A stretch of 60,856 bases of DNA, filler included, from Hausera hauseri (Eukaryota): the NCBI GenBank assembly GCA_046269625.1. It is 10 parts of 10 records of this genome, joined end to end, with 100 filler letters (N's around TTAATTAATTAA, not from the genome) between each part and the next. Parts side by side here need not be neighbours in the genome. Positions count along the whole stretch, not along the records: positions 56,880 to 60,856 come from JBJURY010844636.1; 9 more parts are not named here. The stretch is one strand, 5' to 3'. Under the pieces are notes generated by a model that made no database searches, had not been told where the DNA came from, and saw only the letters and a program-made list of their open reading frames with translations. This document shows positions 8,363 through 60,856 of the stretch, in pieces. A program made the position numbers and the translations under genes. Numbering within the stretch: the stretch's first letter is position 1; each line of letters starts with the position of its first letter.

Positions 8363-8533
8363 ATCCAACATCGACGGGAGAAATGATATACAGGAAAAAT
8401 TATACGGATGATTAATATTGGTGTACTGCTCTACTCGTTTTGGATGTGTAGATACAAATTTTGAGAGTATTGAATACATGAAACATAAATCATCATTATA
8501 GTTCTGTACATTAATGCATGCCTTTTTATCTTC

Positions 8534-17403: not shown

Positions 17404-17582
17404 ATATCTTTGATTTAACGTGTTGTATTTTGTGTATTAATAAATNNNNNNNNNNNNNNNNNNNNNNNNNNNNNNNNNNNNNNNNNNNNTTAATTAATTA
17501 ANNNNNNNNNNNNNNNNNNNNNNNNNNNNNNNNNNNNNNNNNNNNTTCGGATTGCGTTAACAACAATCCAGAGAAACCATCG

Positions 17583-19047
17583 TTATCTTGGATTGTCAGT
17601 ATCCAAGATGTTTGCTATGCGTCGCATATCTATCCTTACCCAATTAGTTCTGCGACGCTTTTGTAAGTAGGGAACTAATTTTATGGTAAGTGCTATACTT
17701 ATGGCTATTATTACGGGAGTTATGGTACATATTAGTATTATTTCTAACCGTGAATGTGAATACGTCGTACGTGGGGGTCTTAAGGTTGTGATTACCGTAA
17801 TAATGACCTTTCTTTGGTATGATTTTATTTTCACTTCATTTTTAGTCACGGCCGTTAAGACCTTTGTGGATATTACCTTGTTATTGTCATTATAAAGTTG
17901 CAATACTATTGTATATTTAGTATTTGGGGTCAATGTTGCGCAAGTCACAATTAAATCATCCGGTTTTATAATTCCTCTAGCAACGACTGCGTCTCGTATT
18001 TTACATGTAAACTTTACTTTAAAAAGTCAAGGTCTGGCTTTACAGATATTATCAGGGAAGTTGAGGCCATGATAATTGTAACATTTTCTCATATGGAATG
18101 TTTTTGTCGGTAATATGATGCATATAGCTTAATTAGAACAGTCATCTCCCTTTCATTACTTTGTTAATCAACGAGGAGTGCACAGATGATGCCGTAACAT
18201 TCTTTGGTTATTCATCATATTCGACTTTATTTAGATATTGCACGTACATGGTCGGTCCTTTTCTTTTTATGCTACTCAAAAATTTTCCATATTCTTTCCG
18301 AGATAGCTTATAGTCGACAATTTATATCTTGCCTCTATCTATGTTGCAGTAGACTTGCTGTTGCGCCTCAGTTATATGGCATTTCCTTGAGATACCTTGT
18401 CGATTTTGCGTTTCTTTAATGGGTATTGTTAACCAGCGGATATATTCTAATTCTATTTTACTTACTATTTTGATGTAACTTCTTCCGCTTTTAAATCCAA
18501 TTGATTTTGCCACCAATTGGGTAACTATTATTTTATCCAATAATGTTTCGTTCATCTGATGTCTTGAAGGAATCAAAATATACCTACTGGTTTTGCTGTA
18601 TTGACTTTGATAATAGTCGCCATTTTTCTTTATAAGGGTGAGATATACTTGGTGGGGACCCGATTCTTCTACTAGACAATGTGTTTCGTTTATCCCTGGA
18701 CGAAGTAGACAATCGTAGTTACGTTCATAAGGGTTTCTTTTATCATGCCATGTTATTTCTTGTATTCCTATCTTATATTCGATTGGTATTCGTCTAGTAG
18801 TATACCAGATTACACTTTTCTTTCCATTATTGGAGTATGTTATTTGGTATCGCAAACTTTTTAGTAATAAATTTTCATTTATTCCTGTTGCATGTCGTAT
18901 TTTAGCACGTTCGATTTCTTGGTTCCTCATTTGGCTCAGGGCTTTTGGTATTAATATAAGAAGTACTAATATGAGATTATTTCTTAAACTAACAACTCCA
19001 CGTATTGGCTTCTTCTTTACCACCTTTTCTCTAATATTTCTTACCAT
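17583..19047 (-). pseudogene. Env-position ORF of a Gypsy element: signal peptide, FN3-like ectodomain, TM helix and short tail (disrupted)
   Basis: N-terminal LILVLLILIPKALSQ; beta-rich Cys-containing segments; FN3 signature CATLTPNTKYTIVLQLYN; Thr/Pro stalk; TM IILICTITPVIIAISIALTI followed by KRRR. Confidence 0.6.
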
Positions 19048-19068
19048 TTCTTGTTCATCTCCACGCAG

Positions 19069-21879: not shown

Positions 21880-21995
21880 AGTAGTAGGATGTGAGTACTT
21901 CGAGCCACTACCCCCCCCGGAAGGAAAGAAGCCAATGGGAAGAGGACACGTCATCGGGTGAAGGAAAACTGGCGAATGGGAAGAGGACACGTCAT
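21880..21995 (+). mobile_element. Polinton-type terminus inserted into the Gypsy pol
   Basis: Starts AGTAGTAGGATG, followed by CCCCCCCCGG, GCCAAT and two ACACGTCAT. It is the reverse-complement homolog of 28522-28639 and cuts the pol reading frame. Confidence 0.75.
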
Positions 21996-22095: not shown

Positions 22096-23095
22096 GTCGC
22101 CAAATGCGTTTGAACTGCTCCAGAATTTAAATTTTATTTCCTCGTAGAAAGAAAGGGAACCTGAACGAAATATTTTTGATAACCTCTATCTACGCGATCT
22201 CAAATGTGTGATCTGCTATGTAGACGTAGCACAAATTATTCTTTTGCCATGCGGTAATTTAAAAACGTGTGAGAAATGTTCAAATCAAACAGTGAATTGC
22301 CCAGTTTGCAGAAGTCATATAGAAAGAAGAATAACACTTTCAGTTCCCACAAGTGAGTAATGAAAACAAATCTATTGGAAATGAACATTGAATAACAATT
22401 AGTATATGTCTGGTTTGAATAAATAAATGTTTATTAGTTGTGTATATGAATTTATAGTAACAAAATTGAATAAATTTTTTATAGAATTACTGGACAGTAG
22501 CAGTATGACTTCGACCAATCTTAACAATTGGACAACGCAATTACTAACAATAAGGTATCAACCACCCAAAATAGTTCACGAATGGTACAGACTATATAAC
22601 AACCCTATAGTTATTAAGGTAATGGAATTAGAATACTCCAAATACTTGACAATGCTTGCTATGAAAATAAATGAAAAGACCGAATTTGACGTATTACCGT
22701 CAGTGATTAACAACATATATCAAATGCAATTGATGGATAACCGACATTACCAGAGAGTCCAACACTTAACTTTAATATCAAAAGAAAAAGAGTAGGAAGT
22801 GGAAAAAAGATGTACAGATATTAGCCGTACAAATTGGACTTGTTTAGTTTGTAGAAAAAATCAATTTAATACGATATATTTACCATGTGGGTACATTATT
22901 CATTGTAAAATCTGTGTTCCTAAAGATTCTATGTTATCAAAATGTACTGTGTGTGAGTTACTCATAGAAGAAACCTGTACTATATATAATAAAATGGATA
23001 GTAATTTAGTCTTTCTTAATAACAATGGCGCAGGGACATCAGTTAAATACCCTATCCCGAGGACGACTGGCACAAAATCAATTAAGAGCGATTAA
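22096..23095 (+). pseudogene. Two IAP-type RING fingers in one reading frame (in-frame stops)
   Basis: CVICYVDVAQIILLPCGNLKTCEKCSNQTVNCPVCRSHI (from 22205) and CLVCRKNQFNTIYLPCGYIIHCKICVPKDSMLSKCTVCELLI. Segments starting 22199, 22427 and 22799 share a frame. Confidence 0.8.
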
Positions 23096-23198
23096 CGAAG
23101 TCGATTCGAACAAAGGAAATATTAGTTCTGCTAATAATTCAGATGCTTTAAGTACAGAATGAGCTCCAGAATCATTACTTGACATCGATTCACTACAA

Positions 23199-25621
23199 TT
23201 GTTTCCCGTTCCAGTACAACATCAGTGTATACGAGGAGTTAATGGGCGACGAAGGCCACCCCGAGGGCAATATCGCAATGCACCTAATTCACGACAATTA
23301 ACACAGAGAATAGTTAACCAGGAATTAAAATTCCGAACACGTTACAAAGTACATCAAGTAAACTTAAACGAATTAAGAATAAGACAAAATCAGACGGACA
23401 ATAGTACTCGACAGTAATAAAGGAAATACAGGATATACCTTGACAAAGAGGAGACGATACAACGGAGACAAGTGTCATGAATAATTATATAAGACTAGAT
23501 ACAGTCGAAGAAAGAACTACACGAATAGATCAAAAAGTGAATGATAGTAATATAAACTTAAACGAATTTGAGGAGAAAAATACTCAACTAGAACAAAACA
23601 TAAATGCCAATTCCAGACAAATATATAATTTACGACAACAGACCATTGACCATATAACAGCAATATATAGAAATAAGAAACAAATTGATAATAATGAGAG
23701 GCAAATAAATGAAAGGTTAAATGAAATACAAAATCATGTAACAATTATGGTATGCGAACAGGAACAAATACAAATAGAAAACAGTCACACCAGAAGCCAA
23801 ACATACACCTTAGCCCAAGGTATAAATCAATTAAATGAACGTCTTGAACAAGTAAGGGCAGAAGAAAGGTGACTCAACGGCAAGAAGCAGTACAATAACC
23901 AGAGTTTTCAACAGAACTAAGTTCTATATCTTGTAAAATCTCTAACACCGACAGCAACAACATGGAGCCGCCAAGAAATAACCGAGATTCATTGGCGCAC
24001 CAAGATGAGCGCAATTGTGCTCAAAATAATAACACCGGTTATGGCCTATTAAACTTTAACGAAAGGAAAAGAGAAAAAAAATACCAAATGCTTCCTCGCC
24101 TCCAACCATATGAAGGGCGAGTATCAGACCAGGAAGACTTTTAGATAAATACGATTCACTAGCAACAGCTATGTATTGGGATGACGCAAAGAAAATACCT
24201 CTTTTACTAGTACGTGTAAACAATTATCTGAGAATGGCAATAACGCGCCTACCTAGACGAATAGGTGAAACTTTGGCACAATACCGAAAAAAGATTTTAC
24301 AAAATCAGCAGGTTAACATACAGGAAAACCGATATTTAAAATTCCAGAATTGTAAACAAAAACCAAGTGAAGAAGTATTGACATATATTAATATATTTAA
24401 AACAGCAATGAATAGATACTTTGGCCTGAATGCACAGGCTTTTAGTGCCATGATCATAAAACATTTTTTACTTGGACTTTTACCACCTTTACGAGACGAA
24501 TTCAAGTTCCACAAAGAAAACAATATTAACGAGTTGATAGATTATACCCGACGAATGGCAACCCGAATTAATGAAACACCCGTGTGGACTAATCAAACAC
24601 AAATTGCAGCAGTGGCTACGACACCATTATTGGTAAGGCCAAATGTACCAAATCGCAGTAACTCACCATGGAGAGACTCTTCGAGAGACCAAAGCCCTAA
24701 TCGACAAGGCAATAATACATCACAACGAAGCAACACTCCAGACAGAGGAAGTTATAACCAATCAGCTAGAAACTACAATAGTAACCAAAGGGATACGCCA
24801 TATCAAAGAAGTAGAGGATATTATGATAATTGACAACGAAATAATCCAAGATACGGTAGATCACGAGATTACTCAAGAGACAGAAATGATAATAGAAATC
24901 GACTTCCCAGTAGAAAAAGGTACACTAACGATCGAAACTCCAATCGCTATGATAATAGGAATAATCAAGTAAGTTCACATCATAAACACGATATCCAACT
25001 AATCGATTGCAAGGATCAGGATCTAACTACTCCAATGATAGGCGAAGCGAAAATCGCGAGAGGTTTAGAAGAGATGACAGTCAAGAACGATATGGTAATC
25101 TAAAAAGAAATAATAGTAGAGAAAGAGATAATAGACTTAGCCATAGCACAGATAGATATAATTCTGGAACTGACAATAGAAATAGATACAATTATACAAG
25201 ATCTGGAAACTATGACAGAAGAAGTGACTATACTCCACCTAGACGAGAATCGGATAGATACAAGAGGAATCCTAGTCCATATCCTCAAAGAGACCGAAAT
25301 CAGACCCCCTTTTCCAGAACAAATAATAATGATGATAGATATACACGACCGCCGGAATATAGTTTCAGACAAAATGACTCACCGATAAACAGAAACACTT
25401 CCCCATCCAAACATAATAGAAGTACGATATTAGATTATTCTAAATATTTCAATGAAAGAAAATTGGACTCAACAATACCATTTTATAGTAGTTCCACAAA
25501 GGAGAAAGGAAACTCTTCAGATAATAGAAAAGGCAAGAGCGACGAAAGGAGCGCCTCACTCCGTCGTTCAGTAACTTTCAATGGCAAATCCAATAGTAGA
25601 ACATTATCAAACCATACCTAA
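23199..25621 (+). mobile_element. gag: Gypsy-type gag: coiled coil, capsid domain and long R/S/N/D-rich tail (frameshifted)
   Basis: Heptad-rich 23477-23872; PRLQPYEGR..DQEDF/LDKYDSLATAMYWDDAKK; MHR-like KQKPSEEVLTYINIF; FLLGLLPPLR; long RS/RD low-complexity tail. Confidence 0.8.
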
Positions 25622-25769
25622 GCCATAAGTTAACATATCCATTGTAGAAAAACCCTTCATAACAAGAAATTACTTGGATAAAGCAGAGCGAAAGGTACCA
25701 GACATCTAAAACAATACACTCCCATATATGTTATGGCCAGAAACTAAAGAAATCCAAAACTTACTTTAA

Positions 25770-27040
25770 ACTTTTGTAGAAGTAGAAAAAACCATTGAGG
25801 ATAAACAGGAATCAGAAATCAATCGAATAAGAATAGAAAACATTGAAGGTGATTTGATAGTCGAATCAGAAAATGTATACTTAGAAAAGGAGAAATGTTA
25901 CGAAAACCGTAGACAACTACTCTGTGGAAAACTTATAGTCGGAATAGATTTGCCATGGTTATTTAAACAAATACAATTAAAGCAAACAGATATCTTCGGT
26001 ACGTTTAATGTAGATCGGAATGATCTACTTACCAAATGATCAATGGAAAAGAGAAGGTACATTATCACAACAATTAAGCAATCTACGACAAGAATACAAA
26101 ATTAAGCTTAATTGTCAGGGATCTCTATATTATATTTTCCCAAGCAGGCCCTTGTTTAAGGATGATAGACATCTCCAACAAGAGATAACATGTAATATTA
26201 CTCTGATCTCAGAAGAAACATTACAGCGTATGGATATAGATATAATTCAAAACTGGGATAAAATATTCGATAACAGGAAATCTAACCGAATAGAGTCTGT
26301 AGATATTGCCGAATAAGGATCAATTTGTATGAAAGGTATCGATAAAATGTATCTAAAAAGACTGATATTCAGATTAAAAGAAACGACCCGCCATGTGCTA
26401 TAATTACTAATCAAAGAGAAGCACGGTTACGAATTGGTAACAAAACAGTAATAGTTTCAAAAGAAACTATGATGTTTCCTAATTAGTCCGATATACCTAA
26501 TACAGTTGCTTAAGGAAACACCAGTGTTAACCGTGGATGAACCCGTAACACAGGATAGAGAAATAATACTTATAGGTAGATGCATAACCAAAGGAGACCA
26601 GAAAGGACATACTCAAATCACTGCCAAAAATCTAGAAGGAAAAACAATTCTTAATATTCATGTATATGCAAACATACCAGACACTACAAAGTACACCGAA
26701 TACAGAAGACGATCCAATCTTCAGCGACAGGAGTCGGTAAGTGAATTCATGAATAAATATTTACCAGGAAAGGTAATCATCGGACGCCAGTTGACAGAGC
26801 TATTAAATGCATTGAGAATAAATCCAGTAAATTTAACCGCCATCTACGATCTGGAACAGACTAACAGAACCTACAAATGTTTGGACCTATACCATGGTCA
26901 TAACTCAGAAATTATGGCACAAAGATATCTAGACGAATACTTAAAGACAGTACGAGTAGAATACAATATACCATGGGTAATAGAAAGCCAGAAAACACTA
27001 CGAATAGTCCTTCCAGTAATACGAAAACTTAATAAAACTG
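25770..27040 (+). pseudogene. Two tandem degenerate DEDDh (REX4/ISG20-like) exonuclease folds
   Basis: Unit 1: FVEVE...INRIRIENIEGDLIV...LLCGKLIVGIDL. Unit 2: TQITAKNLEGKTILNIHV...YLPGKVIIGRQL..LLNALRI...IYDL. Both resemble the REX4 pattern RVSIVN..G....D...LLKGRILVGH.L; catalytic acids are mostly lost. Confidence 0.45.
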
Positions 27041-28295
27041 ATAAAGCAAGAACAATCCCAGTAATTGAACCAATTGCTCAAAGACATCCGTAGATGGATT
27101 CTGATGGATATTCACATGAGCTCGTCAGAACAAGATTAACTGGAGAATGGATAGAACCTTATAAGAATGGATTAGTCCCACCACCTCCTCAATTAAAGGT
27201 TCCACCTCAACGACCTAAGTTACTCGAAAGTATTTGGGATTCAATACACCCAAGCACTTCTAAAAAGGAACCACAAGTAATTTATGAAGACGAAGTGTTT
27301 GAAATTTTAGACGATGAACTTATACCTACACCGAATGTGATCCAATATCCTGAAGCTACACTACCACCAATCGAAAACCCAAAAATCATTCCCGGACATG
27401 AATATTTCACCAGGTTCCATAGTATATGACGAACCTTCAGAGTTAGTAACCGAAATAATTACAGCTAAGTTGAATATAACTGATTCAGCACCTAATAAAA
27501 TATGGAATGCTTTACGACAATACGAGTCACTACAATTAATTAGTCGAATAGAATGTGCGCCATTACTCTTACCACTAACAAAAGATGTTGTATTCTGCTT
27601 TTCAGCCGAAAGAAAGTAATTAAAAACTCTAGGAAGAGACCTAAAACCAAAATACTGAAGAAAACAACCATATATTATAAGCATAGAAATTAAAACCAAT
27701 ACGGGGGAACAAGTAATCGAAGTAACAGCAGGAATGTTTATTAAATTTACAGACCTCCGAAGGAAAGTGTTGGGTGAATTAAATCTCAAAACTAATATAA
27801 TAGCAAAACCGGTGTTTATGGCAGATTAGCCGTTGAGAATGATTATGTTGTAGATTATGGACTCCTTACCGGAAAGATTCATCAGATTACTATGGAATTT
27901 GGCACCAAGAAAAAGGGGAAAGACGACGAAAATGCGATTTAACTCAATAAATGATGATGAAGAAAATCCCGAAGAAGAAAAACCAGAAAGACAAAGAAAG
28001 AAAAGATCTTTGTCGCGAAAACGTAANNNNNNNNNNNNNNNNNNNNNNNNNNNNNNNNNNNNNNNNNNNNTTAATTAATTAANNNNNNNNNNNNNNNNNN
28101 NNNNNNNNNNNNNNNNNNNNNNNNNNCGAGTCCAATTTGAATGGATTCCAGAAGAAACACCAATGGAAAAGAGAATTCGACATCTAACGTATTTGTCATA
28201 TGATTTGTCTTCCATTGTGACAAAACTGAATCAGCTTATTTCATCAATCACCATTTGGATAAATAAAGATTTGTAAATGTTATGTAAATAAATTT

Positions 28296-30031: not shown

Positions 30032-32247
30032 GTGGCCACAAATTCAACAGGATCCTCTATTATCTGCCCAGGATGTGACATTGTATGTGATGTAGAATAC
30101 ATACAGTTTTATGATGATCACAAACATCATTTGACTGATTTCGCATTAAAGTCAAAGAAGTTCATCTTTAATGAACATAAACCAGTTGCACAGCCTGCAG
30201 TACCACACCCAGATGCAGGACTAAAACGCGCATCAAGTGTACCGGATCCATCAGAGAGTCAAAGGCAGCGGCCGGTTAATTCTGCAGCATTAAAGAGGAA
30301 AGTCCGCAAATATGTTATTGATGCAACTGGTCCGACAACCATCAAGGAGTTCCTGGAGTACAAAGAGGAAGAAACAGAAGGGATTCTTCAGGACAACAGC
30401 TGAGCTCAAGGCCATTAAGGCTGATATGAAACTTGAGGCCACATACGTCAATGTTGATGGCGAAGAGTCCAAAATGGCATTCAAGACCAGAAATAGCCCC
30501 ATATTTGAAGCCAATAATGTAGTAGAATGGCTGCATGAAGAGCATGCAAAGCTGATCCGTGAAGCGATGAGAGCCAGAATAAGAAGAGCGGATGGACTCT
30601 GGCAACTATCAAGAGATTGCTTGTGTATGTGCACAGATTCTCCCCCATGCGGGGTAGTTTATATATTCAGCTCCCTGATTGGATCGCTAATAAAAAAGCA
30701 TGTGTCAATGTCCATAATAACGACAACATGTGTTTCATGTATGCCATTCTATCAAAACTCGTACCGGATCAACATAATGCTTCACGAATTTGGCAATATA
30801 AGGATGTGCAGCACAACTATGACTTTCAATGAATTACATCACCTCCATCCTTAGATGAAATTAAGAAGTTCAGTCGAATCAACAATTTATCAACCAACAT
30901 CTTTGGATTGGATGACGAAGATAAATTCTATTTCATCCAGATATATGATAATGAATTGGAAGATCATAGGTATCTGCTCCTAGTAGACTATGGAGAAAAG
31001 ATCATTATGTTTGGATCAAGAGCTTTGAGCGTCTAGTCAGATCCCAAATTACGAATCATCATGGAAAAATTGAGATATGTAAGCGATGTCTCTCATTTCA
31101 ATAGTGATACTGCAGTAGACAGGCTTGCAGAGCACAAAATGTGCTGCAACAACAATTACTGTGTAAGACCAGAATTTCCCAAGGTGGACTATATTGAATT
31201 CAAGGAGTTCGAGAAGAAGATCAAGGTCCCAATACTTATCTATTGCGACTTTGAAGTTATTCTCCGGTCAATTTAGAGCTTCACTCCCAGTTCTGAACAT
31301 AGCAGCACAACGGAATACCAATTTCATGAACTCATTATATTTCATGTATGTCAAAGGACTGGACAGTGAACAATTTCTATTTAGAGGTCCAGTTGCAGCA
31401 TCTCATTTCACGATCCGACTGGAATATATGGTTCATAAGCTTGAAAACATGCTTCAGCACCATAAGGATAATATGAGCATGTCGTGGAAACAAGAAGAAT
31501 GGCCCAAGGCAACTACATGTTACTTGTGCGACAAGTCCTTCACTAAGGAGAATCATAAAGTCAGGGATCATTGCCATTTCACGGGAAAATATCGAGGTGC
31601 AGCATACAACAACTGCAATCTACGTTGCAAAGCATGTACTCATATGTCTGTAGTGTTCCATAATCTCAGTGGCTATGATTCCCATTTCATTGTTCGGGAA
31701 CTGTGCAGCATTGAAATAAACATTGATGTGATTCCCAACAGTGAGGAAAAATACATCACCTTTACCAAGCATGTTGGAAGAATTAGGCTTCGCTTCATAC
31801 ACAGTTTCCGTTTTATGTCGTCTTCACTTGACAATTTAGTGAAGAGCCTCACTGCAGAAAAACTCAAGGAGACTAAGCGGTTCTTTCTTACTACATTTGA
31901 CCTCGTTAAGTGGAAAGGCGTGTTGCCCTATGACTATGTAACTTCATGGGAAACACTGGATGAGACTTCATTGCCGTTATCGATGATATGGACTACCAGC
32001 ATGCTCAGAACGTTTAGCACGCATTCCAATGCCGAACATTAGTGGAATACAGCGAAATACACTTCAAATCGGACGTGCTGCTTCTGACAGATGTCTTTAA
32101 AAGTTTCATGATGTTACGATAAAGTGCCATGCATTGGATCCAGCTCATTTCTTTACAACTCCATGAATGAGCTGGGCAGCAATGTAGAGATGTGCAGGTG
32201 TCCAGCTGCAGATCATAAAGGATTACGACATGATCCTTATGATTGAG
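30032..32247 (+). pseudogene. Protein-primed DNA polymerase B, copy 3 (with EndoVII/HNH insert), 3' cut by contig end
   Basis: GSLYIQLPDWIANKKACVNVHNNDNMCFMYAIL, IYCDFEVIL, CYLCDKSF...VRDHCHFTGKYRGAA.NNCNL, VFHNLSGYDSHFIV, KGVLPYDY. Close paralog of copy 2. Confidence 0.93.
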
Positions 32248-33123: not shown

Positions 33124-34038
33124 ATTCATCTGGATTTATTACCGCAAACGAGACAAACAATAAAAAATCGCTTCGCAACATTTTTGCAATCGTACATGAA
33201 TTCCGAGGGGACGTCGATGTATTCTGGATGAATTTCTCCTATGGTACAAAGGAATAAGCGAAGTTTAGCTGTCGATTATGAGCATTTGGTAGCAACTTAA
33301 CAGGTATTAGCATATTTTGTACCGGAAGCACCATTGGAAATGTTGGAAATATTTGGTGAGGTAGCATTTGAAGTCATCAAAAACAGATACAAAACTACGA
33401 GAAAATGTCAAACGTTATCCACATACGCATTTGCCATCTACCCTTAATTGAAGAAATAAGACCTCTACGTAAAACTCACATCAATCAGTTAATTCGTTTC
33501 TCTGGAGCAGTTGCAAATTGCACAACTGTTCTCCCTCAGTTGAGTCAAGTTTATTACGGATGCGTCAAATGTCGCTGCGTCGTTGGACCGTTTATACAAT
33601 CTGAGGTGAATAAGCAAATTAAACCGACATCTTGTCCAGATTGCCAGTCGATTGGTCCTTTTAACACAGATTCTGAACAGACTGTATACAAAAATTATCA
33701 AAGAATTACTATTCAAGAAACCCCAGGATATGTTGTTGCTGGGCGATTGCCACGTAGTCAGCAGACAGTTCTGACGGACGACCTTGTTGATATGTGCAAA
33801 CCTGGTGACGAAACTGATGTTACTAGCATTTTGTGTTTGCAATACGATTCGTCAACAAATACCAAACATGGATTTTCTGTGTTCAGTACTTATATTCTCG
33901 TCAATAACCTGATAAAAACTGAAGAAAAGCTCATCCTCAGTGGACTAAACGATGAGGACGTTTCGGTGATTAACGCATTGTCAAAGGACGAGAGATTGTT
34001 TGAACGTATCGTTAAAAGTATTGGGCCGATTATTTATG
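33124..34038 (+). pseudogene. MCM2: MCM2 N-terminal/OB-fold fragment (no ATPase domain)
   Basis: LAYFVPEAP.EMLEIF, IHIRI..LP..EEIR.LR..H.NQLIR, CVKC..VVGPF, CPDCQSIGPF, YKNYQRITIQETPG.V.AGRLPRS, CKPGDE, KSIGP.IY. Has in-frame stops and ends abruptly. Confidence 0.92.
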
Positions 34039-34039
34039 A

Positions 34040-34760
34040 AATGGAGGCAATTCTTCCATCTGCACAATATCGTGCTAATGAAACCGATTTCGCGTTCACG
34101 GACCCTATTCATTTTATCTATAGCATCAAATTGCGAAACCTTACGCGTTGTAAAACCAACGGCACAGCAAGTTTTTCAGATAGATCTCATGATCGTATCC
34201 ACCAATTACGTTTTGCTCTGCATTAGGGAAAACAGTGATATCACCAAGGATTCGGACAAATTTACTTTGTCGACAAAACGTTTTTTGAAATCCGATACTC
34301 CAGAACACGGAGCACAAACCTGCCGACAGTTGTTGAAAGAGCTGTTACAACCACTCGATGGACTGCTGTGAGTTCTGGAGACTTTTGTAAGCAAAAGGAT
34401 CACGAGTCAAGCTGACTACTACGGATTTGGCTGCGTTTTGATTTCATTGACACTGTGGCATTGAAGGAACTTAGCAGTCAGTTAGAACGACTGCAGGAAT
34501 TACCACACTCATGTGGATTTCGTCAGTCTGTTGTACCTCTCGCCACTGTTCACCAAATAGGCGCAGATATATTTGATGTCCGCTTTACAGGAGAATTCGA
34601 CACTGTCACTGACATGTTCAGAACTGAATTACACCGGCGGTTTGCTTATATCGTAGACCACACATCGACAATTGGTGGACCAGATATTAGCGAGGGACAG
34701 CAACTCGTGTTATATGCTCTTCTGTTTACAATTCGCGACGTTAAGGAATCTTCCTCTCTT
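34040..34760 (+). pseudogene. Possible WASH complex subunit 4 (SWIP) N-terminal fragment
   Basis: Weak recalled similarity only: DF..DPI, YVLLC.....KF, G.VLISL, LVLYALLF; frameshifted. Confidence 0.3.
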
Positions 34761-49600: not shown

Positions 49601-51314
49601 GGTCCAGTCAGAGATGCATGTTTTTTCGAGTGTTCAATCGTATTTCCATGGAGATCGACACTCAACTGAGTAGCATCAGTAGGAACGGTATTACTGTTGT
49701 TCAAAGTAATAGAACGCAAATGGAGGTTAGTCATAACAAGGGGTATATCAATGTATACTCCGCGAATCACAGTTTCAAAGGAATTCAAAGGACGTATATT
49801 AAAAATCAGTGTCAGACATAAAACTCTCAGATAAAGATTTAATTTAAGGGCTGATGAAAATGTTAGTGGATAGTATGAACAAATATGGGGAATATCTAAN
49901 NNNNNNNNNNNNNNNNNNNNNNNNNNNNNNNNNNNNNNNNNNNTTAATTAATTAANNNNNNNNNNNNNNNNNNNNNNNNNNNNNNNNNNNNNNNNNNNNG
50001 AGGCTTGTCAACTGAGAGATGTTGTGAACCGTGCACTCACTGAGTTGAAAGGAAATTTCGGGAAAAAAGGCGAGAATTCTTTTTCTTCACCGCTGCCAAC
50101 GTATTATGATGATTGTGTACTATTTAGGAAGCCTCAGTACCCAGCTTGTAGCGTACCAAACAACTTTAGTTCTGAAAACAAAGTGAGGTTCATAAACATT
50201 GCTACATCTCCTGAAGTTTCGAGAGTTCTGAGGTCTAATTCGAATGCTTCATCCAAATCACAAATTCTTTCTGCCATACTAATTCCTCAGATGTAAGACG
50301 AGTGTCGTTGTTGATTTTTTTGTTGTGTGCAGGCGTGAGTGACCATTTGAAGCTCAATTCACAAGCTGCATTGTTGGCTTGGGGCTTTGTTCTGCTTCTT
50401 CCATTGCTTTCTTTTCACTGCTGTTTTCTCTTTCTTTTTCTTTTTCTTATACTGATGTTGATGAACTACTACGTTCTTTTTCTTCCAGCACATTCTTTCC
50501 TTGGTTATGCAACAGTGTTGTTGAGAATATTGACAGGAGTCATCTTCAGCGAATTATTGTGTGATGCGAATGATATTTGAGGTATGTTCAGTTAAATGCT
50601 TGAAGTGATGTATTCTGTTGCTATTCATTCTTTCTGTCTTTCCTGACCAGCAAGAATGTTCTTTAGCTTGATACCATTTCAGTTCGTAGCATTACGGTCA
50701 TGATGATCAGTCATCATAGTTGCTTGATGGAGTATACATATAGAGATAATATTATACTAGACATAACCAACATATTAAACATATTCGTTTCCCTGAACTC
50801 ATTGAATTTAATAGTTTTTTCTTTTTATGTATCTCTTTGCCTTCTCAACTTTTTTTCTTTGTTTATCATGCTGCTTGTGTTGCTGCTTACCCTTTTAATT
50901 GTGTGTAAGGGTACTTCGGCCATATTGGCAGTTGTATACTGAATCTATCCTGGTCAGGGTGGATGAGGTAACAATTTACCGGATTGATACTTGGCATGTA
51001 GCACTGTCCCTCTCCAACATGGTGTCAAATGATAGTTTATGTCATTGTTATTATTGTTTCGAGAGTGCTTTCTGAACATGTTGTGATTGCTGTTGCCCTT
51101 GTTCATTTGCTGTTTTCCGTCTCCCTCACACCTTCTTCCTTTGTTAATTGAGTGTCTTCTTCCGCAGCTTACATTACGGCAAGCTATTCTGAGTGATTTG
51201 TGATGAAGGCCTCGGAAAACGAAGAGGGAAGTACAGAACCATAGTATATAGTGTGTTTTGTGCTAATTGTCTTTTTTTATATCACAACTCACTGTGCTGC
51301 CAGCATTGTAGTGG

Positions 51315-51899
51315 ATGTCTGACGACCGGAGTGGTTTTGATGTTGTAGTCCATGGAATCGTTGAATGCGCGGAATGTCTTGAAGCCGATATGATATATTG
51401 CCGGACGTTCATCTCAAAAGGGCCAGATTGGTCCGTGACATCACCGGCCGCCAGTGGTGAGCGTGTCAGCAACGTTGAAATAATTACGCAACTGTCCGAA
51501 AGGCTGCCTGGACCTGTTGCAAAGTTTACCTGGAACGCCCCGTTTGAATGTTGCTTTCGATCTACGAACATTTCTGGATGGCCCCAACTAGCGATACAGC
51601 TGAATACTATCAACAGCGTTGGGAAGGATATTCTTGTAGGGTACGCGCGGTGTCATATACCAACACATTCAGGGCATTTTACACGCGAACTTACACTTAT
51701 GCAGCCCCTATGTAGCACACCGCAACAGCGGCTGTTTAGTTCGTTGTTTGGAACTGGCCCACCAGAGATACGAGATATTAACTTTCTGTGTTCAGCTGGG
51801 GAGAGGGCAATGATCCATGCCAAGCGACTACCTGGTTATATTCGGGTCACATTCAACGTAATTGTTGATGGTCAAACAGTGCTTGGGTATGACGTGTGA
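51315..51899 (+). CDS. B9D1: B9 domain protein 1 (ciliary transition zone), intronless
   Basis: G.VE.A...D..YC....GPDW, TWN.PF...F.STN..GWPQ, G.D...GY...H.P, terminal LGYD; intact 194 aa. Confidence 0.88.
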   Translation: MSDDRSGFDVVVHGIVECAECLEADMIYCRTFISKGPDWSVTSPAASGERVSNVEIITQLSERLPGPVAKFTWNAPFECCFRSTNISGWPQLAIQLNTINSVGKDILVGYARCHIPTHSGHFTRELTLMQPLCSTPQQRLFSSLFGTGPPEIRDINFLCSAGERAMIHAKRLPGYIRVTFNVIVDGQTVLGYDV

Positions 51900-52528
51900 A
51901 GTGATGCGTATGAAGCCTCATCTACTAATAGATGAATCCTTCATTCCATGCATACATATGCATGATAACACTGTTGTTGCAACAGTCAGCTAGTAGGCTG
52001 CATAGAGCAATCTATATGTATGTATATATAATTTGCGAGAAGATAGTAACGTCAATGTTTATATAGCATCAAGTGCTACTGATTTACAAAAATGTTTGTT
52101 CATACACTTACTTGTAACCAATGCTGAAGTACATGTGCTTTGCTGGATGTGATGTGAGCAGTGTACTCACAGTGACGTTTATAGAGCGACAGTTGTTGCC
52201 GCGCCTGTCTGTGTTTACTGTTCTTCTAGTTCCCTGTCCATTATCACTTTCTGTGCGCGTACACATACCCTTTGTCTTGTTTCGTGTACTGCCTTTTTCT
52301 TTTTTTCTGCTCGATTCATTTTAGTGATAGGAACACATTGTACTGTCTCGATCAAAGGAAAAGGAGAAGGGGGATTCTACGAGAATCAGTGGCTGTCAAG
52401 GGAGTAAGAAGGTTTGGCTAGAAGAATAGATATACAACAGACTTTTGTTTGGTTCCAGAGGATAACGTATTGAGTGAAGCTGACTCACAAGGAATCAGTG
52501 AAGCCTACTTCTCTGTAACGACGAGGTC

Positions 52529-55315
52529 ATGTTCCGTAATTCTTGCGGATGTTTCAGTCGCTGCGGTCTCACGGCGAAGCGATCAATCGCCGCGACGCTC
52601 AGTGAACTTCACTCAGTTGTGGCGCTGCTCAGCATAATTTTTATTGCTTCTGTGACTATCTGTTGCGTTTCGATTGTCGTTGTCAGTGTCGTAAACTTGT
52701 CGGATGAAATTTCGATTTGTTCCAAGTTGGGATCACAATTGTCTTTTACGGGGGCTTGAGCAACTGCTAGCACACATCTCTCGAAACATATGCACTGTAG
52801 TTTAGCTTTACCTACCACTGTGCAGAGAAGCGCGTTGCCGAATTTCATTGGATTGTATGGGCAAGCGCGGGCGGACCCGTTCGCTGCATGGATAAAGTAT
52901 TTATCGAACGTTGTTGTTGGTGGAGGGAGTAAAGTGGAGTCCGCTGGAGTTGTGTTTGCAGATAACACTGTCGTTTTGTCAAGAGAAATCCAAGGTCTTT
53001 TCATACGTACTGTTGATCCATACAACGGAAGCACATCGTCAAATCCCGTGTTGCCGCCGATGGTCCATACTGTTGCATACAACAAAACTACTACTCAGGT
53101 GATCAAAGAGGTGTGGGTCCGTCAGCCAGATTACTTCACGCAGTTAGATTGGTATAACACATCACCGAAGGCATACAATGCACCACCTGTAATTTCTAAT
53201 TTTGTTCTTACCGCGATGCAGAAGTTTCTTGTCGTCATCGTAGCGCCGATCTACATCAGTGGTTCATTTGCTGGTGTGGTGTTCACCCGTATTTTGCTTG
53301 CTTCCATCAGTTCCTTCCTCCAGACGTTGCCGTTGACCCCTAACTCCGTTGTTGTCTTACTAGATCTTGACAATTACCTATTGGCTTCTACTGTCAAGGG
53401 ATCAAGCGGAACGTTCACCACTGGTGAGCTGCCAATCCCTGCTGACGGGAAGCTGCCTGTTGGTTGTACAACGTATCCTTTTGCTTCTACACCCTTCATG
53501 AGATGCCGTCTGTACGGCGGCAACTACTCTGGGAGTGCTGTATTAAGAATGTTAGTCAATGAGTATGGGAGTTTCCTGAACAGGTCATTTACTGGTGTAG
53601 AGGGTATTCAAGTAACTTTGCGAGCGGTTTCGTATCAGGTTGCATTTGGGCCTCTCATCTTTAACCAAACCGCTTTGGGTCGTGCTGGTTACGCTCTGTG
53701 GAGAATTGTAACTATTATTCCTGACTCGGATATAACATCTGAAGCTCGTAATGGAGAGAATATTACCTACATCATTGCCGCAGTTGTTATTGTTCTCTGT
53801 GCAATCATATGTGTAGTCGCTGTTTTTCTACTTCTGCACCCATTGAACGTTCTTGCCGAGAGGATGTATTGCATTTCTTCAATGCGTGGTAGTGAACTTG
53901 TTTGCGCAAGGGATGAGAAGGCCGTAGAGAGTTGTGTTACTGAAGTGTGTATTATCCAAGAGGCATTGTATGTCTTAATTAAGCAAATAGCGTTTACGAG
54001 AGATTACTTATCCCCTGCACTTCTAGCCCAACTTGAAGCTGAGGATATAAATGACGATGAGGAAGTTCCTTGCAAAATAGAAGTAGTCGGGCCGAGTGAC
54101 TCAATGGCAGGGACCTATGGGAATATTCAAAGAGCCGATTCGATGCATTCGTTGATGACGTCATCGACAGTTCGATCTTCTTCGTCCAAGGTCTCAGTAT
54201 CTTCTGTGAACAAGAACACATGTACTATTTTGTTGTCTAACGACATTGCTACAAAGAACATAACTGTCGTTTCGCTCAATATAATAGGATTTGATCAAAT
54301 AATCGAAGATCATTCATCAGTGACGGAGAGGCCATACTGTGAACTTGTCGAATGTGTTGCGAAGGTTGCCAGAGACAATCGTGGAGTGTTGGACAGCTTT
54401 CATGGAGACAGATTTTTTCTGACATTTAATGCAGCGATATCTGCTGGTTCGCATGTTGCGTTGGCGGCCACCAGCGCGCTTAACATCATCTCTAACTCTG
54501 CAGTTCCAATGAGTTGTGGTATTGCGAGTGGCCCGGCACTTGTTGGCAATGCGGGGTGTGGTGGTCACAAACGTTTCTGCTGCTTCGGTGTGTGTTTTTC
54601 TCAGGCGACGATCCTAGAGCGACTGTGCAAACACTATCAAGGGACAACAATATTAGCGTCTGCGTCTGTACTACGTGATTGTGCAACGGTGTGTGAGTTT
54701 ATATATCAGGACGTCATCTGCCTACCCTGCAAGCCTTTTCTGAACAAAATCACTGGTGAACACGTATATTCGAAGGCAATGCCAATCGGTTCGTTGAAGT
54801 ATATGAAGTCCGCTGCCGCTGATGAGTGGATGTACGAGTTGGAGGCTTCGAATGACACTTTATTCGCACAATCAAATCAGGCCTTTATGCTTGTCATGGA
54901 AGGTAAGGTTGACGAAGGTGTTTCTAAATTGTCAGCGCTTCAAAGCGTTGGTCCGGAATTTGAGCAGTTGAAGGAATTTGTGACGCGAGTCGCTAAGACC
55001 TCCATTAATAATGCGGCCCCTACTAGAAAAGTAGGGTGTGAAGAGTCATTGTATTACATGGGTGTATTAGCGTCCGAGAAACATAGCTATTTCAATGATT
55101 GTATTCTATTTCATGGTGGATCGATATTTTTTCGCAAAGCAAGCACACGGATGATGTCAATGGGTAGTTCTCTGAGTCTCATGACAGATCTCGCTGCTAG
55201 GAAGTTTACTTTTGTTCATCAGCGTGTGGGGGTGAAGGAGTTGAACAAGAAAACTAGTTTTATGTCTCAAGCAAGTAGTGTGAGTGTTTCTTCCGCGATA
55301 CTGCATTTATTATAG
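52529..55315 (+). CDS. Receptor-type class III nucleotidyl cyclase (TM-Cache-like-TM-HAMP-like-cyclase) with one in-frame TGA at 52757
   Basis: ORFs starting 52529 and 52790 share a frame; Cache-like VAPIY.SG.FAGVV; second TM; cyclase motifs VVSLNIIGF, GVLDSFHGD, GIASG.ALVGN.G; EWMYEL. Confidence 0.8.
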
Positions 55316-56387
55316 TAGTAAGTGTTTACTGTTGTATGTAGCAATGCACCGCTATAGACTTCCATGCAAAACTTATTCGGTTCTGAGGGTTGGTGGGTTG
55401 GCGAGATATGTTGGCGATGTTATGATACAGTACAGGTACACTATGCACGTCAATGGAGCTCGTCATGGTTATACGCACTATACCTTTAGCCCACGTTGAC
55501 ATCGGTGAGGGAATGGTTGTTACTCGTTCTCGTGCAGATACGCTCTGTATGCGTCCTACTGTATGCGTAGCATGTTAACATATTATATTAGCGAGGGTGT
55601 TTGCATGCTATGAGAATCGACGGGTATGTGTATTTGTGTAGATATGTGTGCTCACGCACGGTTGTTAGTATGACGGTAGCCAAGTTTATTATTATTTGTC
55701 TTTGTTGTTGTTAGTAGGATCATTATCTACCGGGGAGCATGGTGTTTTTTGATTTACCCTGGCAGACTCATTCATTTTTTCTTATATCTGGTTCTGTTGC
55801 ATGAGTGAGTACGTAGGAATCATCTTCTATTTGCATCTCGCTTTTTCCTGTTGTGCACATTAGTATTTTTCGCTGAATTTTTTGCTTACATTGCACTCGA
55901 TTCTATTGCTACTTCGGTTATTTGAAGGTATTGGTAATAGCTTCCATACAAGTAGGGTTGTTATGCTTCTTTTTGTTTTCATACTTTCGCACCACGATTG
56001 TTTCACAGTTAACATTCCGATGTCACATCTCTTCGTCGTTTTGTGTGAATGGCTCTCGTGCCTCTAGTCTTGAGTATAGCAGTTGTGTATGTGAATATGT
56101 ATTTTTTTTCATTTGTACACTGTAGACGCATGTCTGCATTTTTCACCTGTCTTACCGTTTTCCCTATTGTAAGCTCTAACCACATTTCGTTTTTTTTTCT
56201 TCATGTTACAATATGTTAACTATTGTATATCAACAGATAGTTTAGCATTTCGACTGTGTCCAAAACATTCTATCTTGCTCACTTCAGGAGATCGCTGTGA
56301 TTCCTCTTAGGTCTCTTGTTGCTCCAGCACGCGGCAACGCAACAGTGTAAACGATTTGATCGTAGCTATCCGCTAGTCAAACATCTA

Positions 56388-56779
56388 ATGCCAAAAGCAA
56401 TTGTACTTCCTGTTATCTCAATCAGGCTTATTCTTGCTGCTTTTTCCATTGCGGCGGTTGTAATTTGTACTGTTTTGATTCTGTTTGTGAATGGCAGTTA
56501 TAACAACAGGACCTTTCAATTGTTTGCAACGTCCTTCACCGCGGAAACAACCACTGTCAGCCGTAGGCTTGTTAGGGAATATGCTGACCGGAGCATCAGC
56601 ACTTGTCTGGGGTTGCGCAATGCCGTGTAGAGAAGCGCGTTGCCGAATTTCATTGGATTGTATGGGCAAGCGCGGGCGGACCCGTTCGCTGCATGGATAA
56701 CATATTTATCGAACGTTGTTGTTGGTGGAGGGAGTAAAGTGGAGTCCGCTGGAGTTGTGTTTGCAGATAACACTGTCGT
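56388..56779 (+). pseudogene. Second tandem receptor cyclase, 5' part, with in-frame TAG at 56628
   Basis: N-terminal TM, then ~155 bp nearly identical to 52820-52975. Confidence 0.75.
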
Positions 56780-57914
56780 NNNNNNNNNNNNNNNNNNNNN
56801 NNNNNNNNNNNNNNNNNNNNNNNTTAATTAATTAANNNNNNNNNNNNNNNNNNNNNNNNNNNNNNNNNNNNNNNNNNNNCCTTAACTAAATTATCTAGTG
56901 AGAATACAATTTATAGCACGGTGCCGAAACTTTTGATAAGGAAGTACGCTAAAATCTTGAGGACTAAACCTGAGATAACGATGAAAGTAATGGTATTATT
57001 CCAGTGGATGGACGAAAAAGGAATGTGAATTAACTACATAATCCTATGTGAGGGACGTAAAAAAATGGTTATTAAATAACTGATGAACAAAAGAGTTAAA
57101 TTATAGATTTTACTTTAGAGGTAGAATACTCGACGACCTAGGACAATTAATATATGTCGGGATTATTTCCGACGAAACAAATTGAATATTAGCAACAATA
57201 GCTAACGAGCAGACAAAAGAAGAAGGCACACGTAAGGCAAGGTCACAGAAATGCGTGGGGCAGATTATGGGAGTCCGAGATGCTGCAATGTATTTCGAAT
57301 ATTTACAAACGGATGAAGACAACGAACAATACGATATAAATTTAGTACCACTGAGTGAGCTAACCGCTAAGGGCCCAAGGCCGAAACGCCCAGTTGGTAG
57401 GCCTAAGAAAACGCGAGAAGAGATGCACTATAATAGCAAATTAATTAGAGAACTGAGGCAGATGTCGATTCCGACTCTCAGTACAAACAGTGAGGAATTA
57501 AGTGAGTTAATAAAGAATTTGATACAAATTTTAAATTATTCGAGCCTTCTAAGTGATGTATTAGATGATAAAAAAGATAATATTTGATGCAACCAGAATG
57601 ATGCGAAGTTCACATTTTAAGTTATTAAAAAGTAACTTAGCCGATAAATCGGTAATCGAAAAAATCATGGTAGAAAACATCCACGAGGAATTTAGAAAAG
57701 TATTACAATACTTAGCTGTCAAAATAAACCCTAATCAAGAGAATGAAATCAATAGAGCTATAAGTTTAGTACGAAAAGCATCAAGGAGATTGCCCTGAGA
57801 AGTAAATTGGTCAAGATTGTTTGACAAAGAAGAAGACAGACAGAGCAGCAACAAACTCGACGATATGTTACATAATTTAATAACAGCGGATGTTAATTAT
57901 CGGAAAAATGAATC

Positions 57915-59750
57915 AAATTTGTTAATCAGCCTACTCACTTTGATGATGCTAATAAAACACAAGCTCTCTTACCGTTTACAACAGCGATAAGTTTAAGCTA
58001 GGGCAGAGATATTCCCTAATCGATCTGGAAGTGTGCGAAGATGTTAAACCGCACAAGTTGGAAACAAGACAGAAAGATTATTTCCTGTACCAACAACAAG
58101 AACTGATATCGTTAGATGGAATGGAATGCATGCTGGGACGATCGCGTAGCATTTTTCACTGTGGGTTAGTACATGGACATTCCTCCAAAATCAAGCCAAC
58201 AACTCCGCTAATCCCAATGAAACTAGAACGCCATCACTGCAAACAAACCAAGGAGACTGGAAGGGTACAATGGAACAGTATGCAATTAGAAATGCAACCA
58301 GGAAAGATAATTACAGCATATAAAGTAGTGGCCGGAAGGTTAGACATGCATAGCGGACACTGTTACAGAGCGGAATACGACACCGAAAAAGGATTACAAG
58401 CAAATGTGGTAGCCGTGGATTTCTACAAATCGGAGATGCGATCGCAGAAAGTAATGTTCCATAGTGCCACTAAGTTATACGCTGAGAATTAAAAATGTCA
58501 TTTACAAGACGGAACCTGTGCTTTTAGAAGTTCAGTTATAATATGGGAACTTCCCTTTGGAAGAAGCTGTAATTTTATTAAAATTAAAGAACTGAAGTTT
58601 AATGAAACTACGGGAAAACGATACGGGATAAATCGGAAACCAACTGGAGGACAGGCGAGGACGTATCAGAACATCCCACACCCACCATATTAATCTCGGA
58701 TCAACATAGACTGAAATTCATAAAAAAGAAGATGATTTCTTGTTCTGGTGTAATAATGTTCGCTACTAACTATGAGGCATTTTTTGTCGCAGAAACGGAA
58801 ATAAATGCAAAGACTTACAAATTAGAAACTCAGGATGTCTGAATCGAGGACTATCTAAAAAATAGAATCGATTACTTCTATTACAAAGAACAAGTCGGAA
58901 TAACGGTGTTATGTCACAAAATAATAATGAATGACTACAAATTAGATACCGAAATCATAAGGACGAAATTGGCCCTTATATATGCCAACCCAGAATTGGA
59001 CTCTCTAATAATTCATATGAGAGAGGGAATTTTCTGTCGGGTCACAAGCGAAGTACTGCTAACCTATGAATGCGAAAAGAGAGACGTACCCATCAACGTG
59101 GAAGAAAAACGTTTCATTCAGGAACTTCCTGTCATGTATCAAAATACTCCCAGGTTAGCTACACCATAAACGAGAGTGTTATTGGACAGTGCAACCCAAA
59201 CAACCATCCTTAGAGATTGTAAGGCGAGCTTAGGAGAGCCCATGTTTAGACGAAGTGAAACAGATTGTGTTAATTTGCCAAATAGAGGCATTACTGCCGC
59301 CCCAAATAAATTAACAGGAACAAATCTTGCGAAAGGAATTACGGGCGACAAATTTCAAGATACCTCGTCAAAAGGTTTATATAGGCCGAGGGAAATTAAA
59401 GCCTTTAGGCAATTCCTCTCTTTCCCGCGACAGCGAACACATGAATTAAACCGAGCCATGGCCTCAGTAGTAGACGATACACGATATCAGGCTAAGTGGA
59501 AATCTTTACTTGGCGTAAATCATTATCAACGAGTAACCACAGAAATACTCTATAAAATTTGGGGAAGATTTTTGATCTTCGAATAAGCTGCATCCGGATT
59601 TTTAGCGATATGTTTTTTGATACAAATGATTAAAGCAGTGATCCAAGCAGTAATTAATGGGTACGAAATATTTACATTGACTGGATTTTTATGTAAAATA
59701 CTGACTGTAATCATAACGCCTTTTGGAAAATTCTTAAAGGCATACGAAGA
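57915..59750 (+). pseudogene. Chuvirus-type (class III, gB-like) envelope glycoprotein, decayed
   Basis: Hydrophobic signal LLISLLTLMMLI; YSLIDLEVC; C....SR.IFHCG; C.....TG; AG....SGHC; C...DG.C......IIW; C......ELPV; W.RF..F...SGF....F..Q.IK......INGY.....GF. The pattern matches my recollection of chuvirus G and the G of Anakin Pao elements. Confidence 0.7.
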
Positions 59751-60258
59751 GGGTAATTGGAATTCAGACGTAGAACTTTATGTCGGGTATTATAATTGAA
59801 AACAAAAAAGAAGGCATATACTCTTGCGAAAGCGGACATTTATAAAACCTAATATGCGAAGAAACAATTCAGATGATTACAAGCCTAAGGGAGGAGAAGT
59901 ACTTTCGGCAGTCAACAAACATAAGGCGTACTCGGTTATTAAAACACCATTACCTATGCTACCTACTACGGCTCCAGTCTACGATGACTGTGACAAACGA
60001 TTACTGAGTTCATATCAGACAGAAATCTATAAAAGAACAATTAATGTAGAAGACCCTTATGAAGGAACAAAACGTTACGGGATCATACGGAAAATGAGTT
60101 ACCGACAATCCACAGTTGGTCCGAAAATGTTGTATTCTGCGAAAGAACCTCGGGATATAGAAACTAAATCAACGGTTTAGGATAATCCCATATTAAAAAC
60201 CTTCCAGAATACCGAACTACACACTAACAATCGAGAACCATTAATTAGTACACATGAA

Positions 60259-60744
60259 ATGGAAAAATTACACTTAGAAAACAATGAATTATATCCGAAC
60301 GAAAAATTAAGACAATTATTGGAGAATATAGTATCCTCCCCCAAAATCCGAATCAATGGACATAAAATATCGGCAACTAAACGTCCCAAAATAGCAAAAA
60401 ACTGTTTCGGAACAGTAATAGAAGGGAGACCCTTTGCCAAAATCATTATCAAAGATTGGGAAGTCTATGCCTTAATCGATACAGGATCCAAAATATCTTA
60501 CATTAAAAACGATTCTGTACCTAAATCTCTGAGGGGACAATTATATCCACCATCCATAAAAGATCCAGAAAGTACGGGAGCTTTTGGCCAAATGTCGAAA
60601 CCGATGTTTAAATGGAACCCAGAAGTTCAAATGGTTGGGCAGTTTTTCCATCACGAGTTTGCAGTTATGGAGCAATTAACTGACGACGTAGTTCTAGGAT
60701 GTGATCTACTGAAAATATTACCAATTATAGCAGTTGACTTATAA
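60259..60744 (+). mobile_element. Gypsy-type aspartic protease (retropepsin)
   Basis: PFAKIII...VYALIDTGSKISYI...FAVM......VVLGCDLL. Confidence 0.88.
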
Positions 60745-60856
60745 ATAGGTAATCTAATATAAATCAGGCCAAATAAAGGCGTAAAAAACACTAAGGATAG
60801 AAAATTTGAAGAGGTATGGATACTGTAAAAAAAACACATTTCATCGAGAACAGAAA

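Follow-up and report, generated by a model that had tools for sequence, protein, structure and literature searches.

The tenth contig of the sequence analysed here carries a decayed fragment of what is very probably a Burro-like Ty3/Gypsy Gag-Env-Pol polyprotein, in which a fusogen and a protease shared one reading frame. The window, by which we mean the whole stretch of 60,856 nucleotides from Hausera hauseri (assembly GCA_046269625.1), consists of 10 short contigs with spacers of the form N44-TTAATTAATTAA-N44 between them; the feature lies on the last of these (JBJURY010844636.1, 56880-60856; 3,977 bp, 37% GC) and is cut by the window end. Both ends of this contig are assembly or window ends rather than element ends, and no RT, integrase, Gag or LTR was found on it, the contig being internal to the element. 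The initial annotation had not recognised the order of envelope before protease from described families. The order is not new, as the layout is already published for Burro/GYPSM1 (PMC6431247) and for gB-type errantiviruses (PMC13524379), as far as the available parts of these two reports go, and the window contains a divergent and decayed member. The features recognised, all on the + strand, are the following.

56880..60856, +, piece from the interior of a single decayed copy, the family being a high-copy retroelement (contig mapping, 30/30 bins covered)
57186..57587, +, stop-free upstream polyprotein piece with a basic GRP motif (no stop among 126 codons; shuffles average 9.3)
57565..57918, +, possible decayed Bcl-2-like homologue (weak; profile search), in the same slot as in relatives; stop at 57796
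57919..57954, +, hydrophobic stretch resembling an internal signal or signal anchor (sequence inspection; 12 hydrophobic residues)
57956..58630, +, N-terminal third of Env, class III fusion domain, in a frame other than that of the remainder; stop at 58490 (PF24664, E 2e-12)
58615..59568, +, central and C-terminal Env ectodomain; stops at 58840 and 59167 (PF24664, E 3.5e-32)
59569..59724, +, two hydrophobic helices (59569-59625 and 59668-59724) forming the membrane anchor region; stop at 59584 (hydropathy scan)
59731..60423, +, Env tail and linker, in the frame common to env and protease and interrupted by a stop at 59797 and another at 60178 (stop counts)
60424..60714, +, retropepsin (aspartic protease) with the DTG aspartate at 60478, followed by a stop at 60742 (PF00077 RVP, E 1.9e-5, above cut-off)

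Coding sequence and decay

Stop counts per frame were compared with those of 1000 dinucleotide shuffles. The successive segments from 57186 to 60714 contain 0/126, 1/130, 1/225, 3/366, 2/231 and 0/97 stops per codons, each equalled by at most one shuffle, and this region is ancestrally coding; the first 300 and the last 140 bases of the contig gave no coding signal in the same test. In the largest segment, 58633-59730, 3 of the 366 codons are stops, compared with a shuffle mean of 24.2. Overall the copy is dead, with 8 stops and two to three frameshifts. Frameshifts near 57955-57990 and 58615-58680 divide the signal-like stretch, the N-terminal third of env and the remainder from one another, and a third is likely near 57565-57587, at the stop-free frame 57186-57587. 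Positions 57565, 57919, 58906, 59176, 59617, 59824 and 60259 are all in the same reading frame, which bears out the earlier observation that the ORFs starting at the last five of these share one frame. These ORFs are parted by point stops as stated, but the N-terminal third of env (57956 to about 58630) lies in another frame.

Contig 10 is a member of a dispersed multi-copy family. At 80% likeness or more, 12,315 contigs of public run X1 align to it and cover 30/30 bins, although X1 is a single run, possibly of the source sample, and as such is not independent. Most of these contigs (10,113 of 12,315) are less than 95% alike to it, and the variable places among the copies comprise 752 transitions versus 215 transversions. 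The env stops at 58490, 59167 and 59584 are absent from most other copies (with 40 of 967 places shown), and some X1 copies vary in length near both env frameshifts; these breaks are therefore private decay of this copy. Among the public datasets listed as containing contig 10 sequence there was one run, X1, and no RNA dataset.

Fusion glycoprotein

Both env pieces score above the cut-off for PF24664, the Monjiviricetes fusion glycoprotein family (Monjiviricetes_fusion). The translation of 57956-58690 covers positions 36-210 of the Pfam profile (E 2e-12) and 58714-59736 covers positions 259-599 of 653 (E 3.5e-32), and when 58606-60855 is read with X at the stops this family occupies residues 37-377 and RVP residues 607-703. 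The two pieces are also collinear in tblastn, with residues 148-369 of the related protein P0005 matching 57959-58624 and residues 377-740 matching 58615-59706, the latter at 31% identity. The N-terminal piece retains 8/9 of the P0005 cysteines, and the C-terminal part only 2/6 of those aligned; we read the loss of the C-terminal cysteines as decay. Two hydrophobic helices lie 3' of the ectodomain in the window, compared with one in most relatives (hydropathy scan).

The structure of the N-terminal piece was predicted with a pLDDT of 79.7. In a VIA search of 48,161 PDB representatives all of its top 10/10 matches were class III fusogens, with Z values from 7.6 to 4.6, led by HSV-1 gB (Z 7.6, rmsd 4.4, 131 residues aligned) and including HCMV gB, the Bourbon and Thogoto GP and the Chandipura and rabies G proteins. 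Foldseek gave Dhori GP as best match (E 3.9e-4), and among the matches listed all were class III. Single VIA Z values of this middling size are common by chance, and the class III call for the window Env is made because the fold matches are uniformly class III. The intact relative P0011 matched HSV-1 gB (E 1.8e-13) and the chuvirus-type G of Tacheng tick virus 4 (E 3.3e-39); its TM-scores are low because of domain orientation. On these predicted structures the window glycoprotein is a class III fusogen of the gB/chuvirus G type. A class III fusogen had been proposed from the first, and a fold search against herpes gB and chuvirus G was set beforehand as its check; the class III matches found, to gB and thogotovirus GP, agree with the two PF24664 values.

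The hydrophobic stretch of 57919..57954 does lie in the 57565 frame, as the initial annotation had stated, but its signal-like character is less certain, as it comprises only 12 residues and was not called in the hydropathy scan of the window. A hydrophobic segment immediately 5' of the glycoprotein start was found by hydropathy scan in 13/20 relatives.

Further upstream, 57186..57587 matched P0166 in tblastn (E 0.003). Its GRP motif, which we take to be AT-hook-like, has a counterpart 5' of env in 6/18 of the relatives listed. The adjoining segment, 57565..57918, has no Pfam match. It was the best non-self match of a three-sequence Bcl-2-like profile, although weakly so (iE 0.02; 7/999 shuffles equally high), while with a six-sequence profile 18/1992 shuffles scored as high and it ranked no higher than third when all six frames of the window were scanned. 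A three-row MAFFT alignment of this helical segment with two relatives was out of register, and a Bcl-2-like domain in the window would be vestigial at best. In relatives, a Bcl-2-like domain before env was detected in 6/24 of those scanned, three of the six being profile seeds. The Pfam match is below cut-off (E 0.00096), the top PDB matches of this part of P0011 are Bcl-xL/Bcl-2 (best E 0.0099), and three further relatives gave iE values of 5e-13 to 2.5e-4. In the fold search with P0011 no Bcl-2 chain was among the best 50 matches listed, and the Bcl-2-like part of P0019 gave a single unnamed match (0.78) in the ESM Atlas. Ubiquitin/SUMO-like and ankyrin domains are also present in relatives; contig 10 carries neither.

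Junction of fusogen and protease

The linker between the membrane helices and the protease (59731-60423) has 2 stops in 231 codons compared with a shuffle mean of 16.3, and 0/1000 shuffles were as low; its other two frames contain 20 and 15 stops. Open in the frame common to env and PR, it is therefore old coding sequence in that frame. The protease segment itself, 60424-60714, has 0 stops in 97 codons, as low as 1/1000 shuffles. A P0005 protease matches 60304-60759 in tblastn (E 3.5e-6), and a comparison of the protease with PDB sequences gave nothing below E 0.68. From membrane helix to protease the window spans 306 residues, compared with 131-669 in 18 relatives, picked as protease-bearing, in all of which this span is open.

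Env and pol might instead have been separate or read-through ORFs, with the stop at 59797 or 60178 programmed and setting the Env:Pol ratio. Neither stop is a majority difference in other copies, that at 59797 lies about 25 codons past the membrane helices and would be a plausible natural end, and a search for GAG-ENV-POL elements elsewhere allowed env-pol gaps of up to 2 kb, according to the available text (PMC13524379). The silence of other copies at the linker stops is however uninformative, as both lie in edge zones of about 45 bases and 40 of 967 places were shown. The density of stops in the linker moreover matches the decay rate of env (2/231 and 3/366), and 18/18 of the protease-bearing relatives measured are open across this region. 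We consider a programmed stop improbable, and favour one ancestral frame running through fusogen and protease.

Related polyproteins and phylogeny

A full HMMER scan with the window env-PR frame returned 251 matches, the best of which were long proteins; word-index protein searches with the same frame found 0/1,182 and 0/6,226 candidates. Among the best 10 of the 251 phmmer matches, PF24664 is followed by a retropepsin at E<=0.001 in eight and at E 0.0018 in a ninth, while the tenth stops at the membrane helix. At least 14 distinct ORFs encode env, PR, RT and RNase H together (P0005, P0006, P0012, P0020, P0024, P0155, P0159, P0162-P0167 and the L001 ORF), and 13 of them continue to integrase, the sole exception being P0012, which is truncated. 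The relatives reach 4,844 aa, and their pol has the order PR-RT-RH-IN with Gypsy-type RT_RNaseH/Integrase_H2C2 domains. The assignment of contig 10 to Gypsy would follow from these relatives, with only PR on the contig: the Gypsy-type affinity first suggested agrees with the domain order of relatives, but contig 10 does not include an RT of the element itself.

Near relatives derive from ENA or JGI metagenomes. One of them, P0006 (HBK71150.1), is a complete Gag-Env-Pol polyprotein whose database entry is a hypothetical protein from a Flavobacteriaceae MAG; its DNA is most probably of animal origin and was binned with a bacterium. Several relatives contain 2-7 protease motifs per ORF, with up to seven retropepsin motifs in P0155. 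In nine relatives (P0005, P0006, P0155, P0159, P0162-P0165 and P0167) the integrase is followed by two hydrophobic segments that enclose a Pfam-less domain of at least a few hundred residues, and this region is a candidate second surface protein. A separate RNase_T (DEDDh) exonuclease ORF lies 3' of the polyprotein in L001 (10617-12107, E 1.4e-5) and L002 (12085-13473, E 0.0011). No repeats of 40 nt or longer were found in 2/2 relative loci, which are possibly incomplete, and IMG/VR gave no locus for P0005.

A maximum-likelihood tree was built with IQ-TREE from 45 of 129 env rows, with near-duplicates and most of the distant rows omitted. The window env falls within a clade of 21 rows (support 98/87), in which env is followed by a protease motif in 16/20 companions, compared with 0/24 rows outside; the remaining four companions end in or just after env. 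With FastTree on all 129 rows the motif was present in 20/24 inside the clade versus 0/104 outside. The branch of the window env is long (1.5), and its identity to any relative, and indeed to anything among 1.84 billion representatives, is at most 31%.

These results bear on two further explanations. A chuvirus-like glycoprotein EVE could adjoin an unrelated Gypsy protease by chance or nesting, given that Gypsy fragments often lie beside glycoprotein EVEs of Jingchuvirales, as stated in the accessible part of one report (PMC10084718). The helix-linker junction is thinly covered by other copies at 80% likeness, and among the longest pieces listed it is bridged only by the window's own copy. Such an accident is nevertheless very improbable. 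The linker is open exactly in the env/PR frame (0/1000 shuffles), all 30 bins of contig 10 are multi-copy, and the window env clusters with polyprotein-borne envs, apart from free 650-aa glycoproteins. A stand-alone glycoprotein of about 650 aa with an N-terminal signal does not fit, the open frame running about 250 codons upstream and 330 downstream. A repeat scan of contig 10 found no LTR-like or long repeat between the env and protease parts, and the initial proposal of one ancestral polyprotein with env before PR is upheld by the open linker, the relatives' ORFs and the tree.

Least probable of all is an Anakin-type BEL/Pao element with a chuvirus G, the protease coming from the next copy, in tandem or nested. 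A G of chuvirus type does occur in BEL/Pao elements, as the available parts of two reports state (PMC7642597; PMC13524379). In the window and its clade, however, env precedes PR and is not downstream of integrase, and the nearest relatives combine G before PR with Gypsy-type RT_RNaseH/Integrase_H2C2. Matches in which G comes after integrase or after a DUF5641 domain (P0131, P0061) fall outside the window's clade in the IQ-TREE tree. We therefore retain the reading of a single Gag-Env-Pol polyprotein with fusogen and protease in one frame.

Discussion

The layout most similar to that of the window is found in Burro/GYPSM1, giant gypsy-like LTR retrotransposons of planarians in which, according to the part of the report available, Env lies in frame directly before PR within the polyprotein and matches mononegavirus fusion glycoproteins (PMC6431247, Arkhipova and Yushenova 2019). 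Burro1 is 4,873 aa long, similar to the 4,844 aa of the largest of our relatives, and decaying Burro copies are reported in Dugesia japonica (PMC6431247, same part). The window resembles Burro in its Env in frame before PR and in being a decayed copy, compared by architecture and not by sequence, and on this analogy it may be kin to Burro. Its relatives share with Burro the SUMO/ubiquitin-like, Bcl-2-like and ankyrin domains. The gag-side position of env, as in Burro, is seen only in P0163, P0165 and P0167, which have Pfam Gag zinc knuckles upstream of env. Burro/GYPSM1 are further characterised by a length above 30 kb, a planarian host, BIR/MATH cargo and a dUTPase-like domain between PR and RT.

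GAG-ENV-POL errantiviruses with an HSV/gB-type env are described from Platyhelminthes, Bryozoa and Nematoda and are not monophyletic (PMC13524379, Chary and Hayashi 2026, in the text available); supplementary table 1 of that report lists 9 flatworm elements, and the accessible portion of its text does not state env-pol fusion. As is probable for the window's element, these are Ty3/gypsy with a gB-type env between gag and pol, and their ectodomain is flanked by a signal/TM helix and a TM helix, as appears to be so here; they are intact, as far as that portion describes them, while the window copy is decayed. A flipped env-pol order in a metavirus was reported for nematode NERVs (Sacco et al. 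2022, as cited in the available part of PMC13524379). The window's element, compared by description only, is similar to NERVs in having env before pol. NERVs are reportedly encoded as one continuous gag-env-pro-pol ORF and are said to be confined to nematodes. Anakin BEL/Pao elements carry a chuvirus-like glycoprotein, according to the parts of the reports at hand (PMC7642597; PMC13524379). They share PF24664 with the window but differ in their BEL/Pao backbone, and envs of this kind fall outside the window's clade. In Anakin, env is located after integrase. Troyka was considered and rejected, as it has no envelope in the part of its description available (PMC12440569). The literature searched yielded no further account of a gag-env-pro-pol layout or of Burro in other flatworms.

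We tentatively entertain a broader reading, although on balance we lean slightly against it as a whole. The window family may be a deeply divergent Burro-like lineage that underwent massive expansion in a host other than a planarian, perhaps a parasitic flatworm, and may be part of a broad, mostly unlabelled clade of single polyproteins in which Pol is synthesised attached to the tail of Env and integrase is followed by a second membrane protein. If this is true, Burro-type elements reach beyond Dugesiidae and provide a natural test of the processing of ER-threaded Gag-Env-Pol.

The proposed scheme draws on general signal-anchor topology and retropepsin processing. An intact element would be translated into one giant protein, with Gag and cargo domains (ubiquitin-like, Bcl-2-like) made in the cytosol. 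The internal signal would direct the glycoprotein ectodomain into the ER, where signal peptidase would cut, and a stop-transfer helix would leave the rest of the chain on the cytosolic side. The protease, RT and integrase would then hang from the Env tail at the inner membrane face until freed by the element's own retropepsin. Such an arrangement would bring Pol to the sites of budding with no need for a Gag-Pol frameshift, and Gag, Env and Pol would be produced one to one. Of the two helices in the window, one would be interfacial if Pol faces the cytosol. Env trimers might fuse particles with neighbouring or germline cells, infectivity being hypothetical. The contig 10 copy contains stops and frameshifts and can therefore no longer carry out this scheme. 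Processing of such polyproteins and infectivity of the particles are stated to be unknown in the accessible parts of PMC13524379 and PMC6431247.

A published but little-known design, an ER-threaded polyprotein with a fusogen in its middle, is thus not a one-off, and at least 14 intact ORFs with env inside the polyprotein sit unlabelled in metagenome collections. The decayed 4-kb fragment itself is of value mainly as a further divergent family, and is a poor handle on processing or infectivity.

Other contigs of the window

The neighbouring contigs are unrelated; they comprise fragments of Gypsy pol, of a pPolB and of an MCM, as well as one protist-like contig densely packed with genes. Contig 3 (17546-21995, - strand) contains a decayed RT-RNase H-integrase region of the env-in-polyprotein clade. 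Its RT is 41-49% identical to that of the relatives, compared with 32-38% for contigs 7 and 8, and groups with the relatives at 100/100 in a tree with only two outgroups; its best PDB match is Ty3 RT (E 1.5e-45). Past the integrase it has a hydrophobic stretch, a Pfam-less domain and a C-terminal hydrophobic helix, as in the second membrane protein of the relatives. Judged by sequence likeness contig 3 may represent the pol that belongs with contig 10's family; the two share no overlapping DNA. Contig 4 (22096-28026, + strand) is a decayed 5' part of another Burro-like family, in which a Gag-like region is preceded by two RING fingers (PF13920, E 1.8e-16). A long stretch of it is 45-53% identical to residues 20-1147 of P0019, including the P0019 ubiquitin-like domain. 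It probably does not represent the 5' part of contig 10's family, as these 45-53% to P0019 compare with 24-25% between the window env and the env of P0019.

Contig 9 (50000-56779) carries intron-free, closely packed genes, including one for a B9-C2 ciliary protein (E 8e-34) and a receptor-like ORF of 851 aa that has a weak Cache match and a 98% identical partial second copy. We take this contig to be kinetoplastid-like, and because of this appearance the assembly probably mixes organisms. Two decayed stretches on contigs 2 and 5 (14994-16706 and 30548-32247) are 68% identical to one another; the first contains a fragment of a protein-primed-type DNA polymerase B (PF03175, E 1.4e-9), likely Polinton-like. 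On contig 6 a broken MCM OB-domain fragment (33372-34223, E 1.2e-31) lies directly 5' of Gypsy-related sequence common to contigs 6, 7 and 8, and is possibly captured host sequence. Contig 1 (1-8533) consists of 8.5 kb of extremely strand-biased simple sequence with an AT skew of about 0.8, and is probably a degenerate short-unit satellite.
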